DNA from: Anaerolineae bacterium
GTDB taxonomy: Bacteria > Chloroflexota > Anaerolineae > JACIWR01
Direction: 5' to 3'
Assembly (NCBI GenBank): GCA_021162125.1
Contig: JAGGZG010000239.1
Location: forward strand, 1-35,804
DNA: 35,804 bases
Under the pieces are notes generated by a model. That model had not been told where the DNA came from. It did no database searches and saw only the letters and a list, made by a program, of their open reading frames with translations. The position numbers and the translations under genes are program-made. Below are positions 17,967-32,250 of the stretch, piece by piece; position 1 is the stretch's first letter, and each line of letters starts with the position of its first letter.

Positions 17967-18839
17967 ATGTTTCGTTTCACTCAACGGTCTTCCACTCTGG
18001 CCGCTGACCTGGCTCTGGTGGTAGTAGCTTTCATCTGGGGCACGACCTTTGTCCTGGTCAAGGGTGCTTTGCAGGAGATAGGTCCCTTCGCTTTCCTGGC
18101 TGCTCGTTTTTGGATAGCGTTCCTGGTCTTGGGTCTCCCGCTCCTCAGTCGTTTGTGGCGTGGCGAGCGGTCCCTGTGGCGGAACGGCGGGCTGCTAGGG
18201 GTGGTCCTTTTCGCTGCCTATGCCCTTCAAACCGCTGGCTTGCGCACCACCAGCGCCTCTAAGGCGGCTTTCATCACTGGGCTCTCGGTTGTCCTCGTGC
18301 CTTTGTTGGCGGCGCTGTGGCTCCGTCAATTGCCTCGGCCCGTCGCCTGGCTCTCGGCTCTGCTGGCCACGGTGGGTCTGGCCCTGCTTTCGATGCCCCT
18401 TGGTCAGTCCCTGGTGGTGGGGGACGGCCTGGTGTTGGGCTGCGCTCTGATGTTCGCTATCCACATCCTGCTGGTGGGCCGCTACGCTTCCCGCTATGAT
18501 CCGCTGGCTTTGAGCGCAGTGCAGATGGGAGTGGTAGCGCTGCTCAGTGGCTTGGTGGCCCCCTGGGCGGAGCCTTGGCCCGCGCGCCTCAGTCCGGTCG
18601 TGTGGGGGGCTGTGCTGTTCACGGCTTTGCTGGCCACAGTTTTAGCTTTGGTGTTGCAGGTTTCCGCCCAGCGCCGAACACCTCCCCATCGGGCGGCGTT
18701 GCTGCTTACCCTGGAGCCGGTTTTCGCCGCCCTGGCGGCTTACTTTTTGGGTGAAAGACTCACTCCGCAGGGGTGGATGGGATGCGCGCTGATTCTGATC
18801 GCGATGGTCATGGCCGAGGTGGCCGAGCGGAACAACTGA
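17967..18839 (+). CDS. DMT/EamA-family transporter
   Basis: IWGTTF, RF, KAAFITGL, GDGL and LEPVFA; about ten TM segments. Confidence 0.92.
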   Translation: MFRFTQRSSTLAADLALVVVAFIWGTTFVLVKGALQEIGPFAFLAARFWIAFLVLGLPLLSRLWRGERSLWRNGGLLGVVLFAAYALQTAGLRTTSASKAAFITGLSVVLVPLLAALWLRQLPRPVAWLSALLATVGLALLSMPLGQSLVVGDGLVLGCALMFAIHILLVGRYASRYDPLALSAVQMGVVALLSGLVAPWAEPWPARLSPVVWGAVLFTALLATVLALVLQVSAQRRTPPHRAALLLTLEPVFAALAAYFLGERLTPQGWMGCALILIAMVMAEVAERNN

Positions 18840-18853
18840 TGTGCCCTGTTGGC

Positions 18854-18890
18854 ACAAGTGCCACGCACTTCTGAAGTGCGCGGCACTTGT
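18854..18890. repeat. REP-like palindrome, family A, between convergent genes (possible terminator)
   Basis: ACAAGTGCCACGCACTTC-T-GAAGTGCGCGGCACTTGT. Confidence 0.8.
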
Positions 18891-18936
18891 CATGTGACCA
18901 ATCTTTATTTCGACCGCATGGATTAACCGTGCAGTT

Positions 18937-19707
18937 TCACACCGGGCTGGTGGCCCTTTGTTCAATCCACTGGCGAGCGGCCCGCTGTTGGCGACACTCG
19001 GGGCACAGCGCCCACAGGTCTTCGATTTCGGGGAACATCTCCTTGAGGAAAGACATCGGTTCGGGGACGAAAAAGCGGCCGCACTGTGGGCAGGTGTGCA
19101 ACTCCACCGTGGTGTGCCAGGTATGCAGGATGCGCTTGTTGCCCTGGTCCTCCATCTTGATCGCGCCGGTGGGGCAGATTTCGGCGCACGCCCCGCAGCC
19201 GATACAGGCATCGGACTGCACGTCGAAAGGGGTGCCCACTCTGCGCTCCATTCCCCGGCCGATGAAGCTGATGGCCGCTGCGCCTATCGCCTCGCGGCAG
19301 ACGCGCACGCATAATCCACACAACACACACAACTCATCGGCCCGTTCGGGTGGGGGGGCGCCGAAGCGGGAGGTGGTTATTCCCTCTTTGGCAGCCATCT
19401 CCCGTATCACGTCGGATTGTGGGCAGCGGCTCAGGAGGAACTCCAGTGCCAGGTGACGGGCGGTCGCCGCTTCCGGCACATTGGTCTCCACGACCATTCC
19501 CTCTTCCACCGGGTAGGCGCAGGAGGCGACGAGAGCGTGGCGAGGCGCAGTGATGACTACCATGCACAGCCGGCACGCGCCGTAGGGGGCCAGCCCTTCG
19601 TGGTAGCAGAGCGTGGGCAATTCCACTCCGGCAGCGCGCACCGCCTGCAGGACGGTTGTGCCGTCGGGCACGGTCACAGGCTGTCCGTTCACGGTCAGAT
19701 TTATCAT
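18937..19707 (-). CDS. Short NuoG/HydA-N-terminal-like Fe-S subunit (BfuA-like; no H-cluster or Mo domain)
   Basis: 2Fe-2S PTLC...GACRLC...ASC; 2x4Fe-4S CVLCGLCVRVC and CIGCGACAEICP; C-terminal CPQC...CPEC; GAGGTG RBS before ATG 19707. Confidence 0.88.
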   Translation of the reverse strand: MINLTVNGQPVTVPDGTTVLQAVRAAGVELPTLCYHEGLAPYGACRLCMVVITAPRHALVASCAYPVEEGMVVETNVPEAATARHLALEFLLSRCPQSDVIREMAAKEGITTSRFGAPPPERADELCVLCGLCVRVCREAIGAAAISFIGRGMERRVGTPFDVQSDACIGCGACAEICPTGAIKMEDQGNKRILHTWHTTVELHTCPQCGRFFVPEPMSFLKEMFPEIEDLWALCPECRQQRAARQWIEQRATSPV

Positions 19708-19732
19708 TGATTTCACCTCACGATCTCCGCTG

Positions 19733-19765
19733 ATCCTCCCGCAGGTTCCAAACCTGCGGGAGGAT
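19733..19765. repeat. REP-like palindrome, family B (intergenic copy)
   Basis: ATCCTCCCGCAGGTT-CCA-AACCTGCGGGAGGAT; the 29-bp core is identical to 21259-21287. Confidence 0.85.
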
Positions 19766-19766
19766 G

Positions 19767-21650
19767 TCATTTCACGATCTCGATGGCCCCCACGGGGCAG
19801 ACGTCGTAGCACATACGGCAGCGCGTGCACAGCTCGGGATCAATGACGTGCGGCTTTTTCTTCTCCCCACTGATAGCGCCTGCAGGGCACTCGCGCTTGC
19901 AGAGGCCGCAGCCAGTGCATAGATCGGGCTGGATGACGAGCCGGATCAGTGCGCGGCAGACGCCCGCCGGACAGCGTTTCTCCACCACGTGCGCCTCGTA
20001 CTCATCGCGGAAGTAGCGCAACGTGGAGAGCACCGGGTTAGGGGCCGTCTGACCCAACCCGCACAGCGAGGCCGTCTTGACCCACCTGGCTACTTCTTCC
20101 AGCAGATCCAGGTCCTCCGGTGTCCCCTTACCTTCGACAATGCGGGTGAGTATCTCGTGCATATAGCGTGTACCCTCGCGGCAGGGCGTGCACTTGCCGC
20201 ACGATTCGGCCATGGTGAAACCGAGAAAGTAGCGGGCTACGTCCACCATGCAGGTGTCCTCGTCCATGACCACCATGCCGCCGGAGCCCATGATGGAACC
20301 GGCCTGGGTCAGAGTTTCATAACTGATAGGCAGGTCGAACAGGCGGGCCGGAAGACAGCCGCCAGAGGGGCCGCCGGTCTGCACAGCTTTCACCGCCTTG
20401 CCGTTCAACCCGCCGCCACCGATGCCTTCGATCATGTCGCGCAGTGTGAGACCCAGCGGCACCTCCACCAGGCCGGTGTTAGCGACTTTGCCCACCAGGG
20501 AGAAAACGACTGTGCCCGCATTGTTCTCCGTACCGATGGCAGCGTACCAGTCGGCACCCTCGCTTATAATCACGGGCACTGTGGCCAGAGTCTTGACGTT
20601 GTTGATGACAGTGGGCTTACCCCACAACCCGCTGGTTGCCGGGAAAGGCGGCCTGGGTCGGGGCTCGCCCAATCCGCCCTCGATGGAGGAGATGAGCGCT
20701 GTTTCCTCTCCGCAGACGAAAGCGCCCGCCCCACGCACGATGGTAATGCTGAAATCGAAGCCGGAGTCGAAGATGCTGTCCCCCAGCAGCCCCAGTTCCT
20801 CGGCGCGGGCTACGGCCTGGGTGACGCGCTCGACGGCCAGCGGGTACTCGTCGCGCACGTAGATGTATCCCTGGCGTGCGCCGATAGCATATCCCGCGAT
20901 GGTCAAGCCCTCGATGACGCTGTAAGGGTCGCTCTCCAGCACAGTGCGGTCCATGTACGCGCCGGGGTCTCCCTCGTCGCCGTTGCAGATAACGTATTTG
21001 GGTTGTCCAGGAGCATCGTGGCAGATTTGCCATTTGCGCCCGGTGGGGAACCCGGCGCCGCCCCGTCCACGCAACCCGGAGCCAAGCACTTCGTCAATGG
21101 TTTCTTGTGGTGTAAGATCCAACAGGACGTGCGCCAGCGCCTGGTAGCCTCCCCGGGCGACGTATTCCTCGACGCGGGTAGGGTCAATCAGGCCGCAGTT
21201 ACGCAGGATGATCTTGCGCTGGCGAGCATAGAAGGGCAGTTCGTTGAGGAGGGGTAAACCTCCCGCAGGTTCCAAACCTGCGGGAGGTTCCTTTTCTTCC
21301 GGGATTACGGCAAGTGCACCCTCCGCCGGCAGTTCGCCCCTGGCCAGATCTGCGATCAGCTCGCGGGCACGGTCGGCGGTCATGCGGGCATAGAGGACGC
21401 GGTCTCGGCCTGGCATCCGCACGTCCACCAGCGGTTCTTGTTGGCAGTAGCCCAGGCAACCGGTGGCGATGAGCATGAGGTCCAGTCCGCGTGCTGCCGC
21501 CTCATCGCGCAGTGCATCGTACACGGCGGCAGCTCCCGTAGCCAGACCACAGGTGGCCATCCCCACGCTGATCTTCAGCCGGGAGGGATAAAGGGTGGAC
21601 AGACCGTCGGCGCGCAGTGTCTCTAAATCGGAACGGCTGTGTACCTTCAT
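19767..21650 (-). CDS. NuoF/HydB-like FMN/NAD(H) subunit (BfuB-like)
   Basis: N-terminal thioredoxin-like 2Fe-2S domain (TCG...GCLGYC), GLRGRGGAGFPTG, NGDEGDPGAYMD, GAFVCGEETAL, GGPSGG, SCGKCTPCREG, SLCGLG, H-x5-CPAGVC and a C-terminal 2x4Fe-4S domain. Confidence 0.95.
   Translation of the reverse strand: MKVHSRSDLETLRADGLSTLYPSRLKISVGMATCGLATGAAAVYDALRDEAAARGLDLMLIATGCLGYCQQEPLVDVRMPGRDRVLYARMTADRARELIADLARGELPAEGALAVIPEEKEPPAGLEPAGGLPLLNELPFYARQRKIILRNCGLIDPTRVEEYVARGGYQALAHVLLDLTPQETIDEVLGSGLRGRGGAGFPTGRKWQICHDAPGQPKYVICNGDEGDPGAYMDRTVLESDPYSVIEGLTIAGYAIGARQGYIYVRDEYPLAVERVTQAVARAEELGLLGDSIFDSGFDFSITIVRGAGAFVCGEETALISSIEGGLGEPRPRPPFPATSGLWGKPTVINNVKTLATVPVIISEGADWYAAIGTENNAGTVVFSLVGKVANTGLVEVPLGLTLRDMIEGIGGGGLNGKAVKAVQTGGPSGGCLPARLFDLPISYETLTQAGSIMGSGGMVVMDEDTCMVDVARYFLGFTMAESCGKCTPCREGTRYMHEILTRIVEGKGTPEDLDLLEEVARWVKTASLCGLGQTAPNPVLSTLRYFRDEYEAHVVEKRCPAGVCRALIRLVIQPDLCTGCGLCKRECPAGAISGEKKKPHVIDPELCTRCRMCYDVCPVGAIEIVK
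21257..21289. repeat. REP-like palindrome, family B, in-frame inside the NuoF-like CDS
   Basis: 33-bp AACCTCCCGCAGGTT-CCA-AACCTGCGGGAGGTT, translating as EPPAGLEPAGGL. Confidence 0.85.
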
Positions 21651-22096
21651 GTTTCCTGCCCCCGGTACTTCTTCAGGATACGCGGGAGGCGGTCGGCTTT
21701 GAGTCGGCCGTAGGTATCACCGTTCACCCGGATCACCGGCGACATGCTGCATGAGCCGAGGCAGTGCACCGTTTCGAGGGTGAAGGCCCGGTCGTCGGTC
21801 GTCTCGCCCGGCTTTACCCCCAGGGTCGTTTCCAATTTCTCCAGCAGTTTCTCACCACCCCGGATGTAACAGGCTGTGCCCAGGCAGACATGGATGGTGT
21901 GGCGGCCGCGTGGCTTGAAACTGAAGGCGGCGTAAAAAGTGGCGGCACTGTAGAGCTGGCTCAGCGGCACGTTCAGTTCGTCGGCTGCGTGACGCAGTTC
22001 CTCCTCCGGCAGATAGCCGTGCTCGGCGTTGATAGCGTGCAACTTGGCCAACAACGCACCCCCGGCGGGGGGCGGCGGTTGAGCGATGAGTGGCAT
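21647..22096 (-). CDS. NuoE/HydC-like 2Fe-2S subunit (BfuC-like)
   Basis: GYLP, ATFY, VCLGTACYIRG and HCLGSC; AGGAGGT RBS before ATG 22096; ATGA overlap with the NuoF-like gene. Confidence 0.93.
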   Translation of the reverse strand: MPLIAQPPPPAGGALLAKLHAINAEHGYLPEEELRHAADELNVPLSQLYSAATFYAAFSFKPRGRHTIHVCLGTACYIRGGEKLLEKLETTLGVKPGETTDDRAFTLETVHCLGSCSMSPVIRVNGDTYGRLKADRLPRILKKYRGQET

Positions 22097-22105
22097 GGTC
22101 ACCTC

Positions 22106-23986
22106 CTAAATCCCCAACGCCGCTCGCTTCTCTGCGATGTGATCAACCATCAGTTGCGCGGCCTTGAAGGGATCGGGCTCGACAGCGAAGGCAGCACCGA
22201 CGACGTCGTTCGCGCCTTCAGTCAGCAGTTTGGTCACCTCGGGGCCACCCAGCACCGGGGGCACGGTGCCCAGCACGGTGAAGACACCCGATGACACTAC
22301 GTAAGCGCCGATGCTGACAGCTTTCTCGCTCATCCATTCTGGGGCTGCGCCGGCCACCGGCAAATCGCTGATGTCCACCCCCAGGGCGTTGGCGATGGCC
22401 GCGCAAGCGACCAGGATGCGGCTGATGTCCACGCAGGAGCCCATGTGCAGCACCGGCGGGATACCCAGTGCTTTGCATACTCCCTTTAGCCCCTCGCCAG
22501 CCTGCTCAGCCGCCTCCGGCAGCATCAGCCCGGCCTTGGCCGTGGCGATGGCATTGCAACCCGTGGTCACCACCAACACGTCTTGCTTGATCAATTCCTT
22601 GACCAGGTTGACGTGGCCGTAATCGTGTTGGACCTTGGGGTTGTTGCAGCCGACCACGCCAGCGATGCCCTTGATCGCGCCGCTCTTGATGGCCTCCAGC
22701 AGCGGGTCAAGGGTGCCACCCAGCGCGGCCACGATGGCCTCTACGCTGAAGCCAACCATGCACTCCATCTTTTCGTCGGGAATGTGCACCATGTCGGCCC
22801 TGCGGAAACGGTAGTTCTCCACGGCGGTGCGCACGATCTCTTTGGCGATCTCGTAGGCCCGCTCTTCGTGGAACTCGACGTGGGTCGCGCCGGGGAACTT
22901 GGCCTTGGGTGAGGTGGAGATGAACTTGGTGTGGAAGCAGCCGGTCAACGCGCCCAAAGCAGGCATGATGCATTGTACGTCCACGATGATTGCTTCGACT
23001 GCGCCGGTGATGACCGCTAATTCCTGCTGCAAAAAGTTGCCAGCGATGGGGATGCCGTGGCGCATGAGCACCTCGTTGCCGGTGCAGCACATGCCGACCA
23101 CGTTGATGCCTTTGGCCCCGTACTTCTCGGCCAGGGCCAGCAGCTCGGGATCCTGGGAGGCGGCGACGATCATCTCCGAGAGGGTGGGCTCGTGGCCGTG
23201 GGCGACGATGTTTACCTCATCGGCCTTGAGCACGCCCAGGTTGGCCTGTGAGCGGACGGGGGTAGGGGTGCCGAAGAGAACGTCGGAGAGCTCGGTGGCG
23301 ACCATTGAGCCGCCCCAGCCGTCGGCGACGGACGCCTTGAGCCCTTGCAGGATCAGGTTAACGGGGTCGTTGTCCACGCCGATGTGGGTGCGATGCATGA
23401 TCTCCACGATCTCGCGGTCAATGCCGCGCGGATCAATGCCCAGCGATTGCCACAGGGCGACGCGCTTCTCCGGTGCGCGACGGGTGAACTGGATGGGGCC
23501 TTCCTGCTTGCCGAACTCGGCATAGACGGCACGGGCCAGGTCCAGAGCGATTTCCTCTTTGCTGCGTCCCTCGGTCTCGATGCCGTACTCCGCGGCCAGA
23601 GCTTTGAGTTTGGCCTCGTCTTTGATCTCGTAGCCGCCGCCCTTGCCCTCGGCGGTCAGCAACAGGGTGTGGGCGATGTCCCGCCCGTGGTCGGAGTGGG
23701 CGGCTGCGCCACCGGCGATCATGCGGATCAGATTGCGAGCGACGATGATGTCCGCCGTGGCTCCGCAAACGCCCCTCTTGGGTCCTTCTTCCTCAAAGGG
23801 GCTGATGCGGCAAGGTCCCATGTTACAATTGCGGCAGCAGACCCCCAGCTCGCCAAAGCCACACTGGGGCTGCATCGCCTCCAGACGATCCCAGGCCGTT
23901 TCGAGACCCAGCTCCTCGGCCCGGGCCAGCATCTCGTGTACAGCAGGGTCAATGCTCCTGCTCAGAATCTTCTCACTGTACGTCAT
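22106..23986 (-). CDS. cooS: Anaerobic Ni,Fe carbon-monoxide dehydrogenase catalytic subunit
   Basis: D/B clusters QCGFGELGVCCRNCNMGPC...GVCG; AAHSDH; C-cluster ligands HGHEP, GMCCTG, DVQC, GCNN, TGC, GSCVD; catalytic Lys in WMSEKA. Confidence 0.97.
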   Translation of the reverse strand: MTYSEKILSRSIDPAVHEMLARAEELGLETAWDRLEAMQPQCGFGELGVCCRNCNMGPCRISPFEEEGPKRGVCGATADIIVARNLIRMIAGGAAAHSDHGRDIAHTLLLTAEGKGGGYEIKDEAKLKALAAEYGIETEGRSKEEIALDLARAVYAEFGKQEGPIQFTRRAPEKRVALWQSLGIDPRGIDREIVEIMHRTHIGVDNDPVNLILQGLKASVADGWGGSMVATELSDVLFGTPTPVRSQANLGVLKADEVNIVAHGHEPTLSEMIVAASQDPELLALAEKYGAKGINVVGMCCTGNEVLMRHGIPIAGNFLQQELAVITGAVEAIIVDVQCIMPALGALTGCFHTKFISTSPKAKFPGATHVEFHEERAYEIAKEIVRTAVENYRFRRADMVHIPDEKMECMVGFSVEAIVAALGGTLDPLLEAIKSGAIKGIAGVVGCNNPKVQHDYGHVNLVKELIKQDVLVVTTGCNAIATAKAGLMLPEAAEQAGEGLKGVCKALGIPPVLHMGSCVDISRILVACAAIANALGVDISDLPVAGAAPEWMSEKAVSIGAYVVSSGVFTVLGTVPPVLGGPEVTKLLTEGANDVVGAAFAVEPDPFKAAQLMVDHIAEKRAALGI

Positions 23987-24014
23987 GGGAAATCACCTCC
24001 TCATGATTTCGGGC

Positions 24015-24566
24015 TTATTGACTGCTGGCTAACTGTTTCTGGCTTTCCAGCGCGTCCAGGAATTGCCGGGCTGCGGCCTGGGTAGCTTGATGGATGACCT
24101 CGGTGGGATATTTCAGGCTGAGCGCCTTGGTTGGGCAGGCTTCCACGCAGGCCGGGCCACCAGGCCGATCCACGCACAAGTCGCATTTGAAAGCCGCCGC
24201 CTTCTCACGGCCAGCCACCTCGGTGGTGGCCACGTGAATCGCGCCGAAAGGACAGACCATCATGCACAGTCGGCAGGCGATGCACAGCCGCTGATCCACC
24301 GCCGTGTAAGTTTCGGTGCGATAAAGGGCTCCAGTGGGGCAGACCCGCACGCAGGGTGCGTCCTCGCACTGGCGGCACTGGGTAGAGAGCTTCACGCTGT
24401 CCACCTGGACCACGCGGTTGCGGCGGTATAGCTTCTCGCCGGCCAGGACAGCACCGATGATGTTGCCCGCCGTGGTGTGGGCTGCCGCACAGGCCAGCTC
24501 GCAAGTGTGGCAACCCAGGCAGCGTTCCGGGTTGACGAGGATGAATGGGCCTTCGAGTTTGTTCAT
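24015..24566 (-). CDS. cooF: CooF/HydN-like 4x[4Fe-4S] electron-transfer protein
   Basis: CLGCHTCELAC, CRQCEDAPCVRVCP, CIACRLCMMVCP and KCDLC...PACVEACP; directly upstream of cooS; AAGGAGGTG RBS. Confidence 0.88.
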   Translation of the reverse strand: MNKLEGPFILVNPERCLGCHTCELACAAAHTTAGNIIGAVLAGEKLYRRNRVVQVDSVKLSTQCRQCEDAPCVRVCPTGALYRTETYTAVDQRLCIACRLCMMVCPFGAIHVATTEVAGREKAAAFKCDLCVDRPGGPACVEACPTKALSLKYPTEVIHQATQAAARQFLDALESQKQLASSQ

Positions 24567-24594
24567 GCGTTTTCACCTCCTTCGAACTTAATTC

Positions 24595-24629
24595 AAGTGC
24601 CCGGCACTTGCAAAAAGTGCTGGGCACTT
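24595..24629. repeat. REP-like palindrome, family A
   Basis: AAGTGCCCGGCACTT-GCAAA-AAGTGCTGGGCACTT. Confidence 0.8.
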
Positions 24630-24661
24630 CTGAAATGGGGAATGGGCAATTTGTGCTGGTA

Positions 24662-24814
24662 CAGAGTGTTGCATGAGTGGAGTCTCGAACTTGTTCGGGG
24701 TACTCTGGCTAACCGGAGGTTGGTTTGTCCGGGCCGTTCTGCAACAAGTTGCGGACTCCGGCCGGCGACCAGGCACAGGGACAAATCCCTTAAAAGTACT
24801 TATGCAACACACTG
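24662..24814. mobile_element. 153-bp MITE-like element with 17-bp terminal inverted repeats and 6-bp target-site duplication
   Basis: Ends CAGAGTGTTGCATGAGT / ACTTATGCAACACACTG (15/17 complementary); CTGGTA directly flanks both ends (24656-24661, 24815-24820). Confidence 0.75.
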
Positions 24815-24998
24815 CTGGTATGGAAAAACCAAAAACGCATCCACGGCTCGAGGATGCCGGGATGTCATTTACGTTCGAGGAACGTCTGAAGAAACGATAG
24901 GCTTTCATAGCCTCTCAGAGAGCTTCAATCCCTCGGTCAGACTCAGTGGGTTAGGTTAAATGTTAGAGACGTGGGGAAGGAACAAGAAGAACAAGTTC

Positions 24999-25067
24999 AG
25001 TGTAGCATACAAATACCCGTGATGTAATATCCGTTCGCAGGGTATTTGCTTCACCTGAATGGGTGAA
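24999..25067 (-). promoter_or_regulatory. Candidate regulated promoter of the coo operon: extended -10 plus upstream inverted repeats
   Basis: TG-c-TACACT at 25007-24999 with no consensus -35; inverted repeats AAATACCC...GGGTATTT (25011-25047) and TTCACC-N6-GGTGAA (25050-25067). Confidence 0.45.
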
Positions 25068-25078
25068 ATGGAGGAGTG

Positions 25079-25708
25079 TCACAACAATCCGCGCTTGGTT
25101 GCCCGCATTACAGCTTCGATGCGGTTGTGGGCATCCAGTTTCTGATACAGGTTCTGGATGTAGGTCTTGATGGTGTTTTCACTCAGACAAAGACGCTGTG
25201 CGATCTCGCGATTAGTCAGTCCCTCGGCGATCAGGCGCAAGATCTCGATCTCGCGCAGGGTTAAACGGTCAGGGACATCATCCGCCGGCCCTTCCTGTAA
25301 CCAATTGAACATCATGCGGGCGACACGCGGGTCTACCGGGGATCCATCTCGCACCAACTCACGGATGCTGCGCCGCAGGTCTGTGCTGGCCACGTCTTTC
25401 AGCACATAGCCCCTGGCCCCGGCGCGAATACATTCCTGTACTACACCACTATCCAGATAACCGGTCAGGATTAGCACTACTGTCCCAGGTACATCATGTT
25501 GGATGCGGTAGCACAGTTCAATGCCGCTGATTCTGGGGAGACGCACGTCCACCAGCGCCACGTCGGGGTGGGTAGCGTGGATTACGCGCAGGGCCTCTTC
25601 GCCATCTCCAGCCTCTCCTACGACTTCAAATTCGGGATCGCCTTGTAGGATGGCGGCGATGCCCCGGCGCACAATTTCGTGATCGTCTACAACGACAACA
25701 CGGATCAT
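25079..25708 (-). CDS. NarL/LuxR-family response regulator (DosR/DevR-like)
   Basis: VVDDHEIVRRG, VDVRLP, GARGYVLK, LTLREIEIL, GLTNREIA and TIKTY; ATGA overlap with the kinase stop. Confidence 0.93.
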   Translation of the reverse strand: MIRVVVVDDHEIVRRGIAAILQGDPEFEVVGEAGDGEEALRVIHATHPDVALVDVRLPRISGIELCYRIQHDVPGTVVLILTGYLDSGVVQECIRAGARGYVLKDVASTDLRRSIRELVRDGSPVDPRVARMMFNWLQEGPADDVPDRLTLREIEILRLIAEGLTNREIAQRLCLSENTIKTYIQNLYQKLDAHNRIEAVMRATKRGLL

Positions 25709-29028: not shown

Positions 29029-31683
29029 TCACAGCCCGCCCAGGCTCTCCAGTCGTTCCCGCAGCTTCTGCCACTTCTCCCGATACTTGGTTACCTTGTC
29101 GCGTTCTTTTTGCACGACGTGGGCCGGGGCCTTGGAGATAAAATTCTTGTTGGTCAGCAGAATCTGGCTATTGGCGATGAGCTTGGTCAGGCGTTCCATT
29201 TCGTTGGCGATGCGCGCTTTCTCCGCTTCCACATCTATCATCCCGGCCAGTGGCAGGTAGATCGTCACTCCGCCGACTACCAGAGTCAGCGCCTGGGCCG
29301 GAACATCCGTCAGCGTCGTGTCCAGTTCCAGCCGCTCAGAGTCCAGGTGGGCCAGGGATAGCAGGATGTCCTGCTGTTCGCGGAGCAGGTCGTAGTACTT
29401 GCCGGCCGCTATGGACGCAGCAATGCGCTGTTTCGGCTGCACGCTGAACTCGGCGCGGGCATTGCGGATGGCGCGCACGATGTCCATCAGCAGCTCGATG
29501 GCCGTCTCGGCTTCCTCGTCCACCCCACCAGCCCGCGGCCAGGGAGCGATCATGATGCTCTCACCCTCGTGGGGCAGATTCTGCCAGATGGCCTCGGTGA
29601 CGAAGGGCATAAAGGGATGCAGGAGGCGCATCGTTCGTTCCAGGACGTACGCCAGCACTTGCCGGGCGGCGTTCTGGGCGCTGGGGTCCTGGCCATAAAG
29701 GCGCACCTTAGCCATCTCGATGTACCAGTCGCAGAACTCACCCCACAGGAAGTCGTAGATCTGCCGTCCGGCCTCGCCGTACTGGTACTGTTCGATCAGG
29801 CGCGTCACGTCCGCCACCAGGCGATTGCTGCGGCTGATAATCCATTTGTCCACCGGGTTCTGCTCCGGTAGATTTTGGATGGAGATGCCGGGCTTGACCG
29901 ATTCGTCCATGTGGCTGACCACGAAGCGGGCCGCGTTCCAGATTTTATTGGCGAAGTTGCGGCTGGCCTCCACCCGTTGCAGGGATAGCTTCATGTCGTT
30001 GCCCGGCGAGGAGCCGGTGAGCAGGGTGAAACGCAGCGCGTCCGCGCCGTATTCGTCAACGATGTTAAGTGGGTCGTATTTTTCGGCGTCGGGCATGGAC
30101 TTGCTGATCTTCTCGCCCCGTTCATTGCGGATCAACCCGTGCAGGTACACTATGCTGTAGGGCGCTTGTCCGGTCATGGCCAGGCCGAGCATGATCTCCC
30201 GGGCCACCCAGAAGAACAGGATGTCGTACCCGGTCTCGCGCATCGTGGTCGGATAGAAGTACTGGAAATCTTCGGTCTCCTCAGGCCAACCCAGCGTGGA
30301 GAAGGGCCACAGCCCGGAGGAGAACCAGGTGTCGAGCACGTCGGGGTCCTGGCGGATGTTGGTACTGCCGCAGTGGGCGCACTTGGTGGGGTCCGTTACC
30401 TCGCAAGTCTGGCCGCCGCAGTCATCGCAGTACCATACCGGGATGCGGTGGCCCCACCACAGTTGGCGGCTGATGCACCAGTCGCGGATGTTCTCCAGCC
30501 AGTTGAAGTACACCTTGGTGAAACGTTCGGGCACGATGCGGATGCGCCCGTCGCGCACGGCCTCCAGGGCCGCGTCGGCCAGGGACTTGATCTTGACGAA
30601 CCATTGGGTGGACACGTATGGCTCGATCACAGTGTTGCAGCGTTGGCAGTGGCCCAGGGAGTGCTGGTAGTTCTCAACTTTAACCAATAGCCCGGCCTTC
30701 TCCAGGTCGGCTACCAGGTTCTTGCGGCATTCGTAGCGATCCTGACCCTGGTACGGGCCGGCGGCCTCGTTCATAGTGCCGTTCTCGTTGAGCACATTGA
30801 TGACCGGCAAATCGTGCCGCTGCCCGATTTCGTAGTCAGTGGGGTCGTGGCCCGGGGTCACTTTTACTGCGCCGGTGCCGAACTCGGGGTCCACAACCTC
30901 GTCGGCGATGATGGGGATGCGGCGTTCCAGTATCGGTAGGATGGCCGTGCGCCCGACCATTGCCGTATAGCGTTCGTCGTCCGGGTGAACGGCCACGGCG
31001 GTATCGCCCAGGATGGTCTCCGGCCGGGTGGTGGCCACCTCGATGAACCCGCCGCCTTCCAGCGGGTAGCGCACGTACCATAGCTTGCCGGTCCTCTCCT
31101 CGTGGACCACCTCCAGGTCGGAGATGGCGGAGGTGCAGCGCGGACACCAGTTCACCAGATAAGTGCCCCGGTAGATCAATCCCTGCTTGTACAGGCGCAC
31201 GAAAGCCTCGCGCACCGCCCGTGACAGCCCCTCGTCCAGGGTGAAGCGCTCTCGCTCCCAATCGCAGGAGACGCCCAGCCGGCGGTGCTGGTCGGTGATG
31301 CGCTTGTGGTAGATTTCCTTCCATTGCCACACCCGCTCTATGAATTTCTCGCGGCCCAGGTCATGCCGGGTGAGGCCCTCCTTGGCCAGCTCGCGCTCCA
31401 CCACGTTCTGCGTGGCGATGCCGGCGTGGTCCGAACCGGGCAACCAGAGGGTAGGATCGCCCTTCATGCGATGGTAGCGGGTCACCAGGTCTTCCACTGC
31501 TGCGGTAATAGCGTGACCCAGGTGCAGTGCCCCGGTGACGTTGGGCGGTGGCATGGTGATGGTGAAGGGCTTTTTCCAGGGGTTAATCTCCGGACGGAAG
31601 TATCCTTTTCTCTCCCACCAGTCGTAGATAGGCTTTTCCGCTTTTTGCGGATTGTAGGTTTTGGGCATTTTGATCTTGCTCAT
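29029..31683 (-). CDS. valS: Valine--tRNA ligase
   Basis: PPPNVTGALHLGH, DHAGIATQ, TTRPET, DWCISRQLWWGH, DVLDTWFSS, KISKS and a C-terminal coiled-coil arm. Confidence 0.98.
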   Translation of the reverse strand: MSKIKMPKTYNPQKAEKPIYDWWERKGYFRPEINPWKKPFTITMPPPNVTGALHLGHAITAAVEDLVTRYHRMKGDPTLWLPGSDHAGIATQNVVERELAKEGLTRHDLGREKFIERVWQWKEIYHKRITDQHRRLGVSCDWERERFTLDEGLSRAVREAFVRLYKQGLIYRGTYLVNWCPRCTSAISDLEVVHEERTGKLWYVRYPLEGGGFIEVATTRPETILGDTAVAVHPDDERYTAMVGRTAILPILERRIPIIADEVVDPEFGTGAVKVTPGHDPTDYEIGQRHDLPVINVLNENGTMNEAAGPYQGQDRYECRKNLVADLEKAGLLVKVENYQHSLGHCQRCNTVIEPYVSTQWFVKIKSLADAALEAVRDGRIRIVPERFTKVYFNWLENIRDWCISRQLWWGHRIPVWYCDDCGGQTCEVTDPTKCAHCGSTNIRQDPDVLDTWFSSGLWPFSTLGWPEETEDFQYFYPTTMRETGYDILFFWVAREIMLGLAMTGQAPYSIVYLHGLIRNERGEKISKSMPDAEKYDPLNIVDEYGADALRFTLLTGSSPGNDMKLSLQRVEASRNFANKIWNAARFVVSHMDESVKPGISIQNLPEQNPVDKWIISRSNRLVADVTRLIEQYQYGEAGRQIYDFLWGEFCDWYIEMAKVRLYGQDPSAQNAARQVLAYVLERTMRLLHPFMPFVTEAIWQNLPHEGESIMIAPWPRAGGVDEEAETAIELLMDIVRAIRNARAEFSVQPKQRIAASIAAGKYYDLLREQQDILLSLAHLDSERLELDTTLTDVPAQALTLVVGGVTIYLPLAGMIDVEAEKARIANEMERLTKLIANSQILLTNKNFISKAPAHVVQKERDKVTKYREKWQKLRERLESLGGL

Positions 31684-31942: not shown

Positions 31943-31976
31943 AAAAGCCCCTCTCGCCTCAAGGACGAGAGGGGCT
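31943..31976 (-). terminator. T-box intrinsic terminator
   Basis: AGCCCCTCTCGTCCTTGAGGCGAGAGGGGCT followed by a short U-tract; overlaps the antiterminator strand CGTCCTT. Confidence 0.85.
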
Positions 31977-32182
31977 CCCTCACGCGGTACCACCTTGCTT
32001 CTGGTCAACCGACCAGCGCTCTGCGGCTGTAACGGGCCGACCCGTGCTGGCCTACTGCTGTGGCCATCAGCCAGCAGACTCCCAGGCGACCTTCGACTGG
32101 CGGCCGGTGCGCGGGGCTTCCAGCCGGTGACCCCGCTTCTCTATCACCGCAGTCCAGCCTACTCCTCCTGTTCACCGTCTTT
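31943..32182 (-). ncRNA. Val T-box riboswitch leader of valS
   Basis: T-box AAGGTGGTACCGCG (31996-31983); stem I motifs GGAGTAG, AGAGAAG, GCTGGAA; specifier GAAG-GTC (Val codon, 32090-32088). Confidence 0.93.
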
Positions 32183-32250
32183 CACAGTCTATGATGAATG
32201 AAGAGTGAGGGAGTTTTGGGAACCCCCTTGCTCCCTCACGGCTGTTTTTA

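Follow-up and report, generated by a model that had tools for sequence, protein, structure and literature searches.

The 35,804-nucleotide (nt) window analysed here, a contig (JAGGZG010000239.1) of an Anaerolineae bacterium (assembly GCA_021162125.1), carries on its minus strand five genes predicted to encode a carbon monoxide dehydrogenase (CODH) module and a flavoprotein core of the BfuABC family. The first, cooF (24015-24566), encodes a polyferredoxin of 183 amino acids (aa) in which 16 cysteines make up four [4Fe-4S] motifs, followed by a C-terminal tail of about 30 residues. It is followed by cooS (22106-23986) for the 626-aa Ni,Fe CO dehydrogenase catalytic subunit; bfuC (21647-22102) for a NuoE/HydC-like thioredoxin-like [2Fe-2S] protein, 151 aa long if translated from GTG, with an alternative ATG at 22096; bfuB (19767-21650) for a 627-aa NuoF/HydB-like flavoprotein; and bfuA (18937-19707) for a 256-aa WorA-like adaptor with a [2Fe-2S] site, two [4Fe-4S] motifs and a C-terminal CxxC...CxxC pattern with a tail. 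The five open reading frames (ORFs) are separated by 28 nt between cooF and cooS, by 3 nt (from the GTG) or 9 nt (from ATG 22096) between cooS and bfuC, by a 4-nt overlap between bfuC and bfuB, and by 59 nt between bfuB and bfuA, and GGAGG-like ribosome-binding sites lie 5' of cooF and bfuA. The ORF coordinates and spacers match those of the tightly linked cooF-cooS-C-B-A group described in the initial annotation. Family searches and inspection of the neighbours also agree with it that the operon contains no catalytic gene for acetyl-CoA synthase (ACS), hydrogenase or formate dehydrogenase (FDH), and no FNOR-type Pyr_redox_2 gene was found within the operon either.

This is a well-formed, real operon. 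Contigs from other public sequencing runs span the cooS-bfuC junction in four of four runs and the cooF-cooS junction in three of four, one of these runs possibly being the source sample, so that these junctions are not an assembly artefact of the metagenome-assembled genome (MAG). The bfuB-bfuA spacer is not bridged by the Logan contigs of the four runs, which end at a palindrome resembling a repetitive extragenic palindrome (REP), and we read this stop as an effect of the repeat rather than a break in the operon.

The catalytic subunit is readily assigned. CooS scores 752 bits against TIGR01702 (equivalog cut-off 478) and 643 bits against PF03063, and its best solved match is chain 6t7j_B (859 bits), with identical Cys/His motifs. 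The conserved motifs (GVCCRNCNMGPC, HGHEP, GMCCTGNE, DVQCIMP, VGCNNP, TGCNAI and GSCVD) include the residues that we take to be the cluster ligands, in keeping with the initial annotation, which had credited CooS with a full set for the D, B and C clusters. Among other solved chains, 6vwy and 6b6v score 757-767 bits and chains labelled 'Carbon monoxide dehydrogenase 2' 611-623 bits; the CODHs of Thermococcus and N. vulgaris have been assigned to clade E (PMC13056359). The CooS of one related locus, L009, is 92% identical to that of the window.

CooF was recognised in a family profile search as a HydN/HycB-like polyferredoxin. Its best solved match is HycB4 (7qv7_B, E 1e-35), aligned up to residue 171, with HycB3 also matched, and it aligns with WorS (9mqx_E) at E 1e-23. 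Across the 20 CooFs compared from loci with Bfu linkage, none of the 16 cysteines varies. The predicted protein resembles HycB4 and WorS, both of which form wires. The HDCR filament (a CO2 reductase that depends on hydrogen; 7qv7), whose HycB3 and HycB4 are matched by CooF with its C-terminal region included, differs in that it links a hydrogenase to a formate dehydrogenase and has neither flavin nor CODH.

To ask whether the remaining three proteins form a core of the bifurcating kind, we used the definition of the BfuABC family given by Schut et al. (2022; PMC9304861) in InterPro entries, whose Pfam counterparts we mapped ourselves. (Statements attributed here and below to PMC9304861, PMC11829005, PMC12318220 and PMC6344411 refer to the parts of those papers that treat these enzymes.) BfuC has the NuoE-like thioredoxin-like [2Fe-2S] domain of that definition (PF01257, 154 bits; the NCBIfam models for HoxE/NuoE are also matched but do not reach their equivalog cut-offs), and cysteines C73, C78, C114 and C118 are present. 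BfuB has the NuoF FMN-binding, SLBB, NuoF [4Fe-4S] and ferredoxin-type 4Fe-4S domains (PF01512, 156 bits; PF10531, 29 bits; PF10589, 124 bits; Fer4 domains at residues 571-624). Along its length there follow one another a thioredoxin-like N-terminal domain with three cysteines, an FMN/NAD site, SLBB, the [4Fe-4S] B1 motif, H-x5-C-x4-C and a C-terminal 2x[4Fe-4S] domain.

The motifs of BfuB point the same way. The protein contains GDEGDPGAYMDR, GGPSGG and DEDTC...H-VVEKR-C-PAGV-C; the B2 site (C...H-x5-C-x4-C) reads DEDTC...HVVEKRCPAGVC, with the same residues as 7t2r_B in the alignment; and the two CxxCxxCxxxC motifs of B3/B4, which align with 7t2r_B, 9n5u_B and 9bov_B, fall within the final 62 residues. 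Non-bifurcating homologues lack sites B2 to B5, the B2 histidine being absent from them (PMC11829005, PMC9304861), and deletion of B3/B4 from Thermoanaerobacter kivui HydABC abolished bifurcation (PMC11829005); the retention of B3/B4 here suggests that they are used. Scores against solved chains separate the two kinds: 763 bits for 7t2r_B (NiFe hydrogenase subunit B), 730 for a chain labelled NfnB, 719 and 636 for HydB chains and 652 for 9mqx_B, as against 416 bits for the beta subunit of an NAD-dependent FDH and 388 for the complex I subunit 2fug_1. As read from its sequence, BfuB has nearly every feature that parts bifurcating BfuB/HydB from NADH-only NuoF, the exception being an N-terminal cysteine taken up below. 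The A-x-M motif, GGPSG, the C...H-x5-C-x4-C site and the C-terminal 2x[4Fe-4S] domain named in the initial annotation are all in the sequence, and its N-terminal 2Fe-2S domain, present with only three cysteines, is weakened as an assignment. Its view that these features typify bifurcating HydB agrees with PMC11829005 and PMC9304861 and with the solved-chain scores. We hypothesize that the window enzyme bifurcates.

BfuA has the [2Fe-2S] and 4Fe-4S domains of a BfuABC A subunit (Fer2_4, 78 bits; Fer4_7/Fer4) and no catalytic domain; nor does it have a His-ligated cluster, the H-x3-C-x2-C-x5-C motif being absent. On these last two points the HydABC/Bfu-type module proposed earlier is to be corrected. 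The best solved match of BfuA is 9mqx_A (247 aa; E 4.6e-48), aligned over residues 2-245 with the four-Cys motif included. All 16 cysteines are invariant in 27 of 27 CooS-linked BfuAs, and C206, C209, C235 and C238, with the tail that follows them, are likewise found in all 27. With sites A3 and A5 lacking and the zinc-finger Cys motif and tail in place, the protein looks, at the level of sequence, like a Type-2, WorA-like BfuA. As it has no catalytic domain of its own, it needs a partner for electron input. Two further loci (L054, 4077-8526; L071, 3908-4681) have a BfuA-like protein encoded after CooS-CooF but neither bfuB nor bfuC in the vicinity, and in L054 its gene is directly followed by genes for ACS and a subunit of the corrinoid iron-sulfur protein (CFeSP).

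An enzyme of this composition has been foreseen. Codh-Bfu was proposed by Schut et al. (PMC9304861) from four sequences, placed in BfuB clade 49, Type 2, and described there as 'only in Firmicutes'; in these the CODH genes separate bfuB from bfuA, and the subunits number six, A to F. The 2025 PNAS paper on WorABCSL (PMC12318220) names 'CodhABCSF', with CooF as a WorS homologue, as likely to be built like WorABCSL and includes it in a nanowire model. Our full-text search of open-access papers and bioRxiv found no report of a purified or assayed CODH-Bfu, and the term 'Codh-Bfu' in a single paper. Inoue et al. (2019; PMC6344411) list NuoE/F/G-like COGs among CODH neighbours, uninterpreted in the parts that treat them, and PMC13056359 groups such neighbours as 'NAD(P)/FAD-dependent oxidoreductase' without mention of Bfu. 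The initial annotation was right that CODH-linked Bfu types had been predicted and none purified; the novelty that it implied is weakened, since the enzyme type, the Type-2 wiring and the model of CooF as a WorS-like nanowire are already in print (PMC9304861, PMC12318220). The window operon is, at the level of sequence, a good member of this predicted enzyme type and not a new kind of system.

Comparison with known enzymes defines what the window shares with them. With Codh-Bfu (PMC9304861, PMC12318220) it has in common the BfuABC core, CooS and CooF, a Type-2 BfuA without A3/A5, CooF as a WorS homologue, and the WorA-like zinc finger and C-terminal helix, here by sequence match; it differs in its Chloroflexota host, its order cooF-cooS-C-B-A, its five genes and a B5 domain with three cysteines. 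In WorABCSL of Acetomicrobium mobile (9mqx), BfuA matches WorA over its full length, CooF matches WorS and BfuB matches 9mqx_B, and the same S4 - A4 - A2 - A1 wiring would be expected (PMC12318220). Catalysis in WorABCSL is by a tungstopterin aldehyde oxidoreductase, whereas the window enzyme would have a Ni,Fe CODH dimer, with CooF as a possible wire. In E. limosum, WorSL exceeds the ABC part in expression (PMC12318220). The NiFe-HydABCSL of A. mobile (7t2r), FeFe-HydABC and NfnABC also have the BfuB/BfuC core in common with the window, but their A subunits are 571-1178 aa long, with catalytic or remnant C-terminal domains, compared with 256 aa here. CooS-CooF-FNOR systems (PMC6344411) resemble the window in that a monofunctional CooS with CooF feeds an NAD(P)-reducing flavoprotein; there this is a single FAD protein, and here an FMN/Fe-S module of three subunits that includes a ferredoxin-side domain.

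We suggest, with a probability of roughly 0.6, that the products of all five genes make up a single soluble enzyme. It would be of the predicted Codh-Bfu (CodhABCSF) type, belong to Type 2 of the BfuABC family and bifurcate electrons from CO to NAD(P)+ and ferredoxin. Of the soluble complex in the initial annotation, the architecture, a CooS/CooF module feeding a BfuABC-type core, is supported by the evidence of domains, motifs, recurrent synteny and tree clustering. From the gene content, cofactor motifs, family membership and recurrent linkage that we observed, we infer a physical complex, its electron path, stoichiometry, bifurcation and direction, the path being modelled by homology on WorABCSL and Bfu structures. 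The CooS dimer would oxidise CO at its Ni,Fe C-cluster, and electrons would pass through the B and D clusters of CooS to the four [4Fe-4S] clusters of CooF. CooF is expected to dock on the C-terminal zinc-finger/helix adaptor of BfuA as WorS does on WorA in WorABCSL, where the WorA zinc finger (four Cys) and alpha-helix recruit WorS and bring S4 within 10.7 A of A4 (PMC12318220). Electrons would then follow A4 - A2 - A1 into the BfuBC core. At the FMN/B1/C1 site two electrons would leave as hydride to NAD(P)+, and two would travel singly through the C-terminal 2x[4Fe-4S] domain of BfuB (B3/B4) to ferredoxin (Fd), for an overall reaction 2 CO + NAD+ + 2 Fd_ox -> 2 CO2 + NADH + 2 Fd_red. Bfu enzymes are described as reversible (PMC9304861), and the window reaction should be so too.

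The energetic rationale depends on the concentration of CO. Using the potentials in Table 1 of PMC9304861, we estimate that the CO2/CO couple, at -520 mV, would rise by some 30 mV for every tenfold increase in pCO2/pCO and come to about -370 mV when this ratio is 1e5. With CO at such trace levels, ferredoxin would be reduced only if its reduction were coupled to that of NAD+, which is the rationale offered by the authors of PMC9304861.

The association of CooS with the Bfu core is recurrent. We examined the best 80 of 596 confirmed CooS loci, counting as linked those with bfuB within 8 kb, and found bfuB beside CooS in 19, in four or more gene orders. The order F-S-C-B-A, which the initial annotation had proposed as a search target, is present in seven loci in addition to the window; S-F-C-B-A in six, three of them with an insert of about 2 kb; and F-C-B-A-S in three, together with one truncated B-A-S. 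In L059, from a Clostridium strain, the order is B-S-F-A with C on the other strand, CooS-CooF lying between bfuB and bfuA, and in one further locus CooS and C-B are 5.4 kb apart. The record titles of the linked loci name Chloroflexota, Bacillota, Planctomycetota, Spirochaetota, Bacteroidota, Methanospirillaceae and Methanoregula, these being MAG labels that may be wrong. The closest public locus, whose five genes stand in the same order and whose CooS is 92% identical, bears the title of an uncultured Anaerolineales MAG, which bears out the Chloroflexota-like host first suggested. The locus extends the predicted Codh-Bfu type to Chloroflexota and, by way of homologous loci, to several phyla and two methanogen families.

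B-like proteins alone are common, 243 of 401 genomes of the class having one at E <= 1e-150. When 34 B-side loci of the class, all outside the window's own genome, were compared, the best-scoring eight were without exception CooS-linked, as was one of the remaining 26, with the reservation that flanks of only 1.5 kb were considered and that several high-identity partial matches were not among the loci fetched. When 55 BfuB rows were placed on a tree, 27 of the 29 with CooS linkage grouped in a single clade of 34 rows (SH-aLRT support 87), and the CooS label requires 6 changes against 18.1 in shuffles, none of 500 of which were as low; this clustering is to be read against a biased sample, in which the rows with linkage had been gathered by way of CooS and those lacking it for their similarity to the window BfuB. 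Pairwise identities of CooS and BfuB correlate across 18 linked loci (Spearman 0.60; L051 and L084 left out), with none of 2000 permutations as high.

The B-side flank length and the tree sampling weigh against our interpretation, as do several other observations. The Bfu label is scattered over a tree built from 81 CooS rows, with 16 changes against 18.0 when shuffled and 58 of 500 shuffles as low. The nearest CooS outside the lineage (L010, 82% identical) is followed by CooF and a 453-aa FNOR-type flavoprotein of the Pyr_redox_2 family. No cooC maturation gene is present in the operon, the genome itself not having been searched for cooC. The B5 domain has three cysteines (C34, C65, C69) and lacks the first Cys of the C-x4-C motif, whereas the N-terminal domain of 7t2r_B has four (C-x4-C...C-x3-C). 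PMC9304861 states that at standard potentials CO reduces both ferredoxin and NAD+ without coupling, and CodhABCSF 'has yet to be purified' (PMC12318220). Finally, 6 of 27 CooS-linked B subunits, 562-574 aa long, lack the ferredoxin-side C-terminal domain. B5 is usually a four-Cys thioredoxin-like domain that holds a [2Fe-2S] cluster, or zinc in Csac NfnB, and the minimal bifurcation site is given as B1-FMN-C1 (PMC11829005); the missing Cys is thus no bar to membership. A single Cys in the first B5 motif is also seen in the solved chains 9n5u_B (labelled NfnB) and 9bov_B, and the three-Cys pattern is common to the closest relatives. The FNOR-type neighbour in L010 implies that the module is exchangeable, and we interpret the two trees together as a largely CODH-associated B lineage repeatedly combined with an exchangeable CooS/CooF unit. 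A CODH lineage of their own for the CooS proteins of Bfu-linked loci was considered and rejected, the label being scattered on the CooS tree.

The six shortened B subunits are of two kinds. In L103 and L104 the protein ends right after the B2 motif; in L051, L056, L066 and L086, a group that includes both methanogen loci (Methanospirillaceae and Methanoregula), B2 is missing along with the C-terminal domain. The latter four carry longer CooFs of 200-210 aa, and the stretches fetched for L103 and L104 showed no CooF. Lacking the ferredoxin-side domain, the six are by the published definition not Bfu enzymes, and a CODH with a NuoEF-like module probably also exists as a plain CO:NAD+ enzyme.

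These plain forms keep alive for the window itself, despite its full set of motifs, the alternative of a non-bifurcating CO:NAD(P)+ oxidoreductase, in which a NuoEFG-like module would take the role of FNOR and the additional BfuB domains would be structural or vestigial. The arrangement in L010 points to just such a swap of modules at the same position, and at the standard potentials of PMC9304861 (Table 1) no coupling would be needed. However, the window B retains H-x5-C-x4-C and both C-terminal motifs, as do 21 of the 27 CooS-linked B subunits, it scores far higher against solved B subunits of bifurcating enzymes than against NADH-only homologues, and it keeps the B3/B4 sites needed for bifurcation in T. 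kivui HydABC (PMC11829005). We therefore regard this alternative as unlikely, if worth serious attention. The same complex might instead run in reverse, confurcating NADH and Fd_red to reduce CO2 to CO for a separate Wood-Ljungdahl CODH/ACS. Reversibility has been described for Bfu enzymes (PMC9304861), and the genome does encode ACS, both CFeSP subunits, formyltetrahydrofolate synthetase (FTHFS) and FolD next to a second CooS; but that ACS-linked CooS, 53% identical to the window's, already makes CO in place, and we estimate from Table 1 of PMC9304861 that the mean potential of NADH and Fd_red would lie above the CO2/CO couple unless CO were very low. Such a direction seems to us very improbable.

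A third alternative separates the two halves of the operon, CooS/CooF reducing ferredoxin on its own and BfuABC serving a partner encoded elsewhere, for example a lone NiFe hydrogenase pair on contig C309 (locus L126, 2881-5080; large subunit 445 aa, small subunit 286 aa). This pair has no adjoining redox partner genes, the solved chain that BfuB matches best is a B subunit from a NiFe-hydrogenase complex, and linkage of CooS to Bfu has often been gained or lost on the CooS tree. Against this, the pairing of CooS with bfuCBA is recurrent and takes four or more orders, with CooS-CooF inside the bfuB/bfuA pair in L059, and the eight best-scoring BfuB loci of other genomes of the class all keep an adjoining CooS. 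A second bfuCBA set on contig C120 (L004, 112-3221), with a B subunit 58.5% identical to that of the window, would be a more natural partner for an Mvh-like hydrogenase: its contig ends 111 nt past bfuA, but in the orthologous set of a relative (L128, 403-5791) a 741-aa HdrA-MvhD fusion lies directly downstream. The C309 pair may be the Mvh-like partner of this HdrA-MvhD/BfuABC set. The genome's FDH, on contig C259 (L005, 383-5694), likewise has its own NuoF-GltD subunit, so that provision is made for other partners. With this second bfuCBA set, the NiFe pair and the FDH all present, it is unlikely that the window ABC proteins serve another enzyme, and the two-enzyme account as a whole strikes us as quite improbable. 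Our preferred interpretation remains a single Codh-Bfu enzyme that would oxidise CO.

The wider genome gives this enzyme its metabolic setting. The assembly, which is 89% complete, totals 3.53 Mb in 407 contigs, and the window is its contig C56. The gene for the second CooS is split over contigs C378 and C36, and ACS lies on C36, beside this different CooS; the window operon itself is not a CODH/ACS. No FeFe hydrogenase was found in the genome, and RnfD was found in none of five genomes (the window's and four relatives). A NuoD-like gene is missing from the assembly and present in both congeners, from which its absence here is probably a matter of incompleteness. Both other genomes of the genus carry the operon, with B subunits 88-90% identical. 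Near-identical DNA occurs in 20 runs of 17 studies labelled as hydrothermal vent, sediment or marine metagenomes, with no RNA run among those listed.

Other features of these contigs deserve mention. On C259 the NuoF-GltD fusion (>829 aa) runs off the contig and is followed by FdhA with an in-frame TGA, whose context, CAHL-TGA-HSPT, is the place expected for selenocysteine. The bfuC-bfuB-bfuA set on C120 is preceded by an OmpR-type regulator and a GAF kinase. A BfuABC core beside an HdrA-type bifurcating flavoprotein, as in the relative of that set, is not among the functional classes in the parts of PMC9304861 that list them. Contig C86 (L127, 3408-4802) encodes a 464-aa protein with Complex1_51K, SLBB and Fer4_17 domains and RnfC_N at its C-terminal end, with no adjoining rnf genes.

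The flanks of the operon hold a LuxR-type response regulator and a GAF histidine kinase upstream and a convergent EamA transporter gene downstream. The regulator and kinase are not kept beside CooS in the 80 loci, where a single weak response-regulator match was seen, and are therefore not counted as parts of the operon. A scan of 18300-25300 found no sigma-70-like promoter, its terminator-like matches being REP hairpins, and an Rfam search of the operon gave no match. Elsewhere in the window a T-box leader (31958-32184, minus strand; 107 bits, gathering threshold 93) lies upstream of a valyl-tRNA synthetase gene (29029-31683).

Two families of REP-like elements, neither with an assigned strand, occur in and around the operon. 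A perfect palindrome with 13-nt arms and a loop of 3-5 nt is present in 24 copies in the assembly. One copy (CCTCCCGCAGGTT-N3-AACCTGCGGGAGG) occupies 19735-19763 within the bfuB-bfuA spacer, where the public contigs break, and another, at 21259-21287, lies inside the bfuB frame and codes for part of the linker EPPAGLEPAGG. This linker joins the N-terminal and FMN domains; it is variable, with a similar one in both congeners. Public unitig-like contigs break at sites of this palindrome. The second family, an inverted pair of AAGTGCnnnGCACTT, has 26 sites in 16 contigs, and two copies bracket the operon: one at 24595-24629, just 5' of the cooF ribosome-binding site, and one at 18856-18888, 3' of the bfuA stop and between the operon and the convergent EamA gene. 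The latter is possibly a transcript-end hairpin. Because the family is genome-wide, it is probably not a CODH-specific operator.

With roughly 28 related loci besides the window, the range of the gene set is much wider than the single phylum first credited with it, and it sets a specialised, largely CODH-associated B lineage against a freely exchanged CooS. More tentatively, and at somewhat worse than even odds, CODH-Bfu may be a widespread, horizontally shuffled device, with carriers among Methanomicrobiales and no fewer than five bacterial phyla, that would gain reduced ferredoxin from trace CO through coupling to NAD+, with CooF perhaps acting as a short cluster wire that gathers electrons from several CooS dimers and the truncated B subunits marking repeated switches between bifurcating and plain forms. 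The truncated versions could serve as natural controls for the ferredoxin-side domain, and, if this picture is true, a comparison of the B variants would be a test, already at hand, of what enables bifurcation in a Bfu core. Of the Bfu enzymes purified to date none oxidises CO, and whether CO oxidation is coupled by bifurcation is the question on which the locus bears. The host being uncultured, cultured carriers are the practical choice, among them the L059 strain and the species of Sporomusa, Acetohalobium and Clostridium named in PMC9304861 and PMC12318220. The Anaerolineae lineage of the window recurs in hydrothermal and marine-sediment metagenomes, and in the ecology of such sediments and vents the enzyme would let acetogen-like Anaerolineae use CO at very low concentrations.

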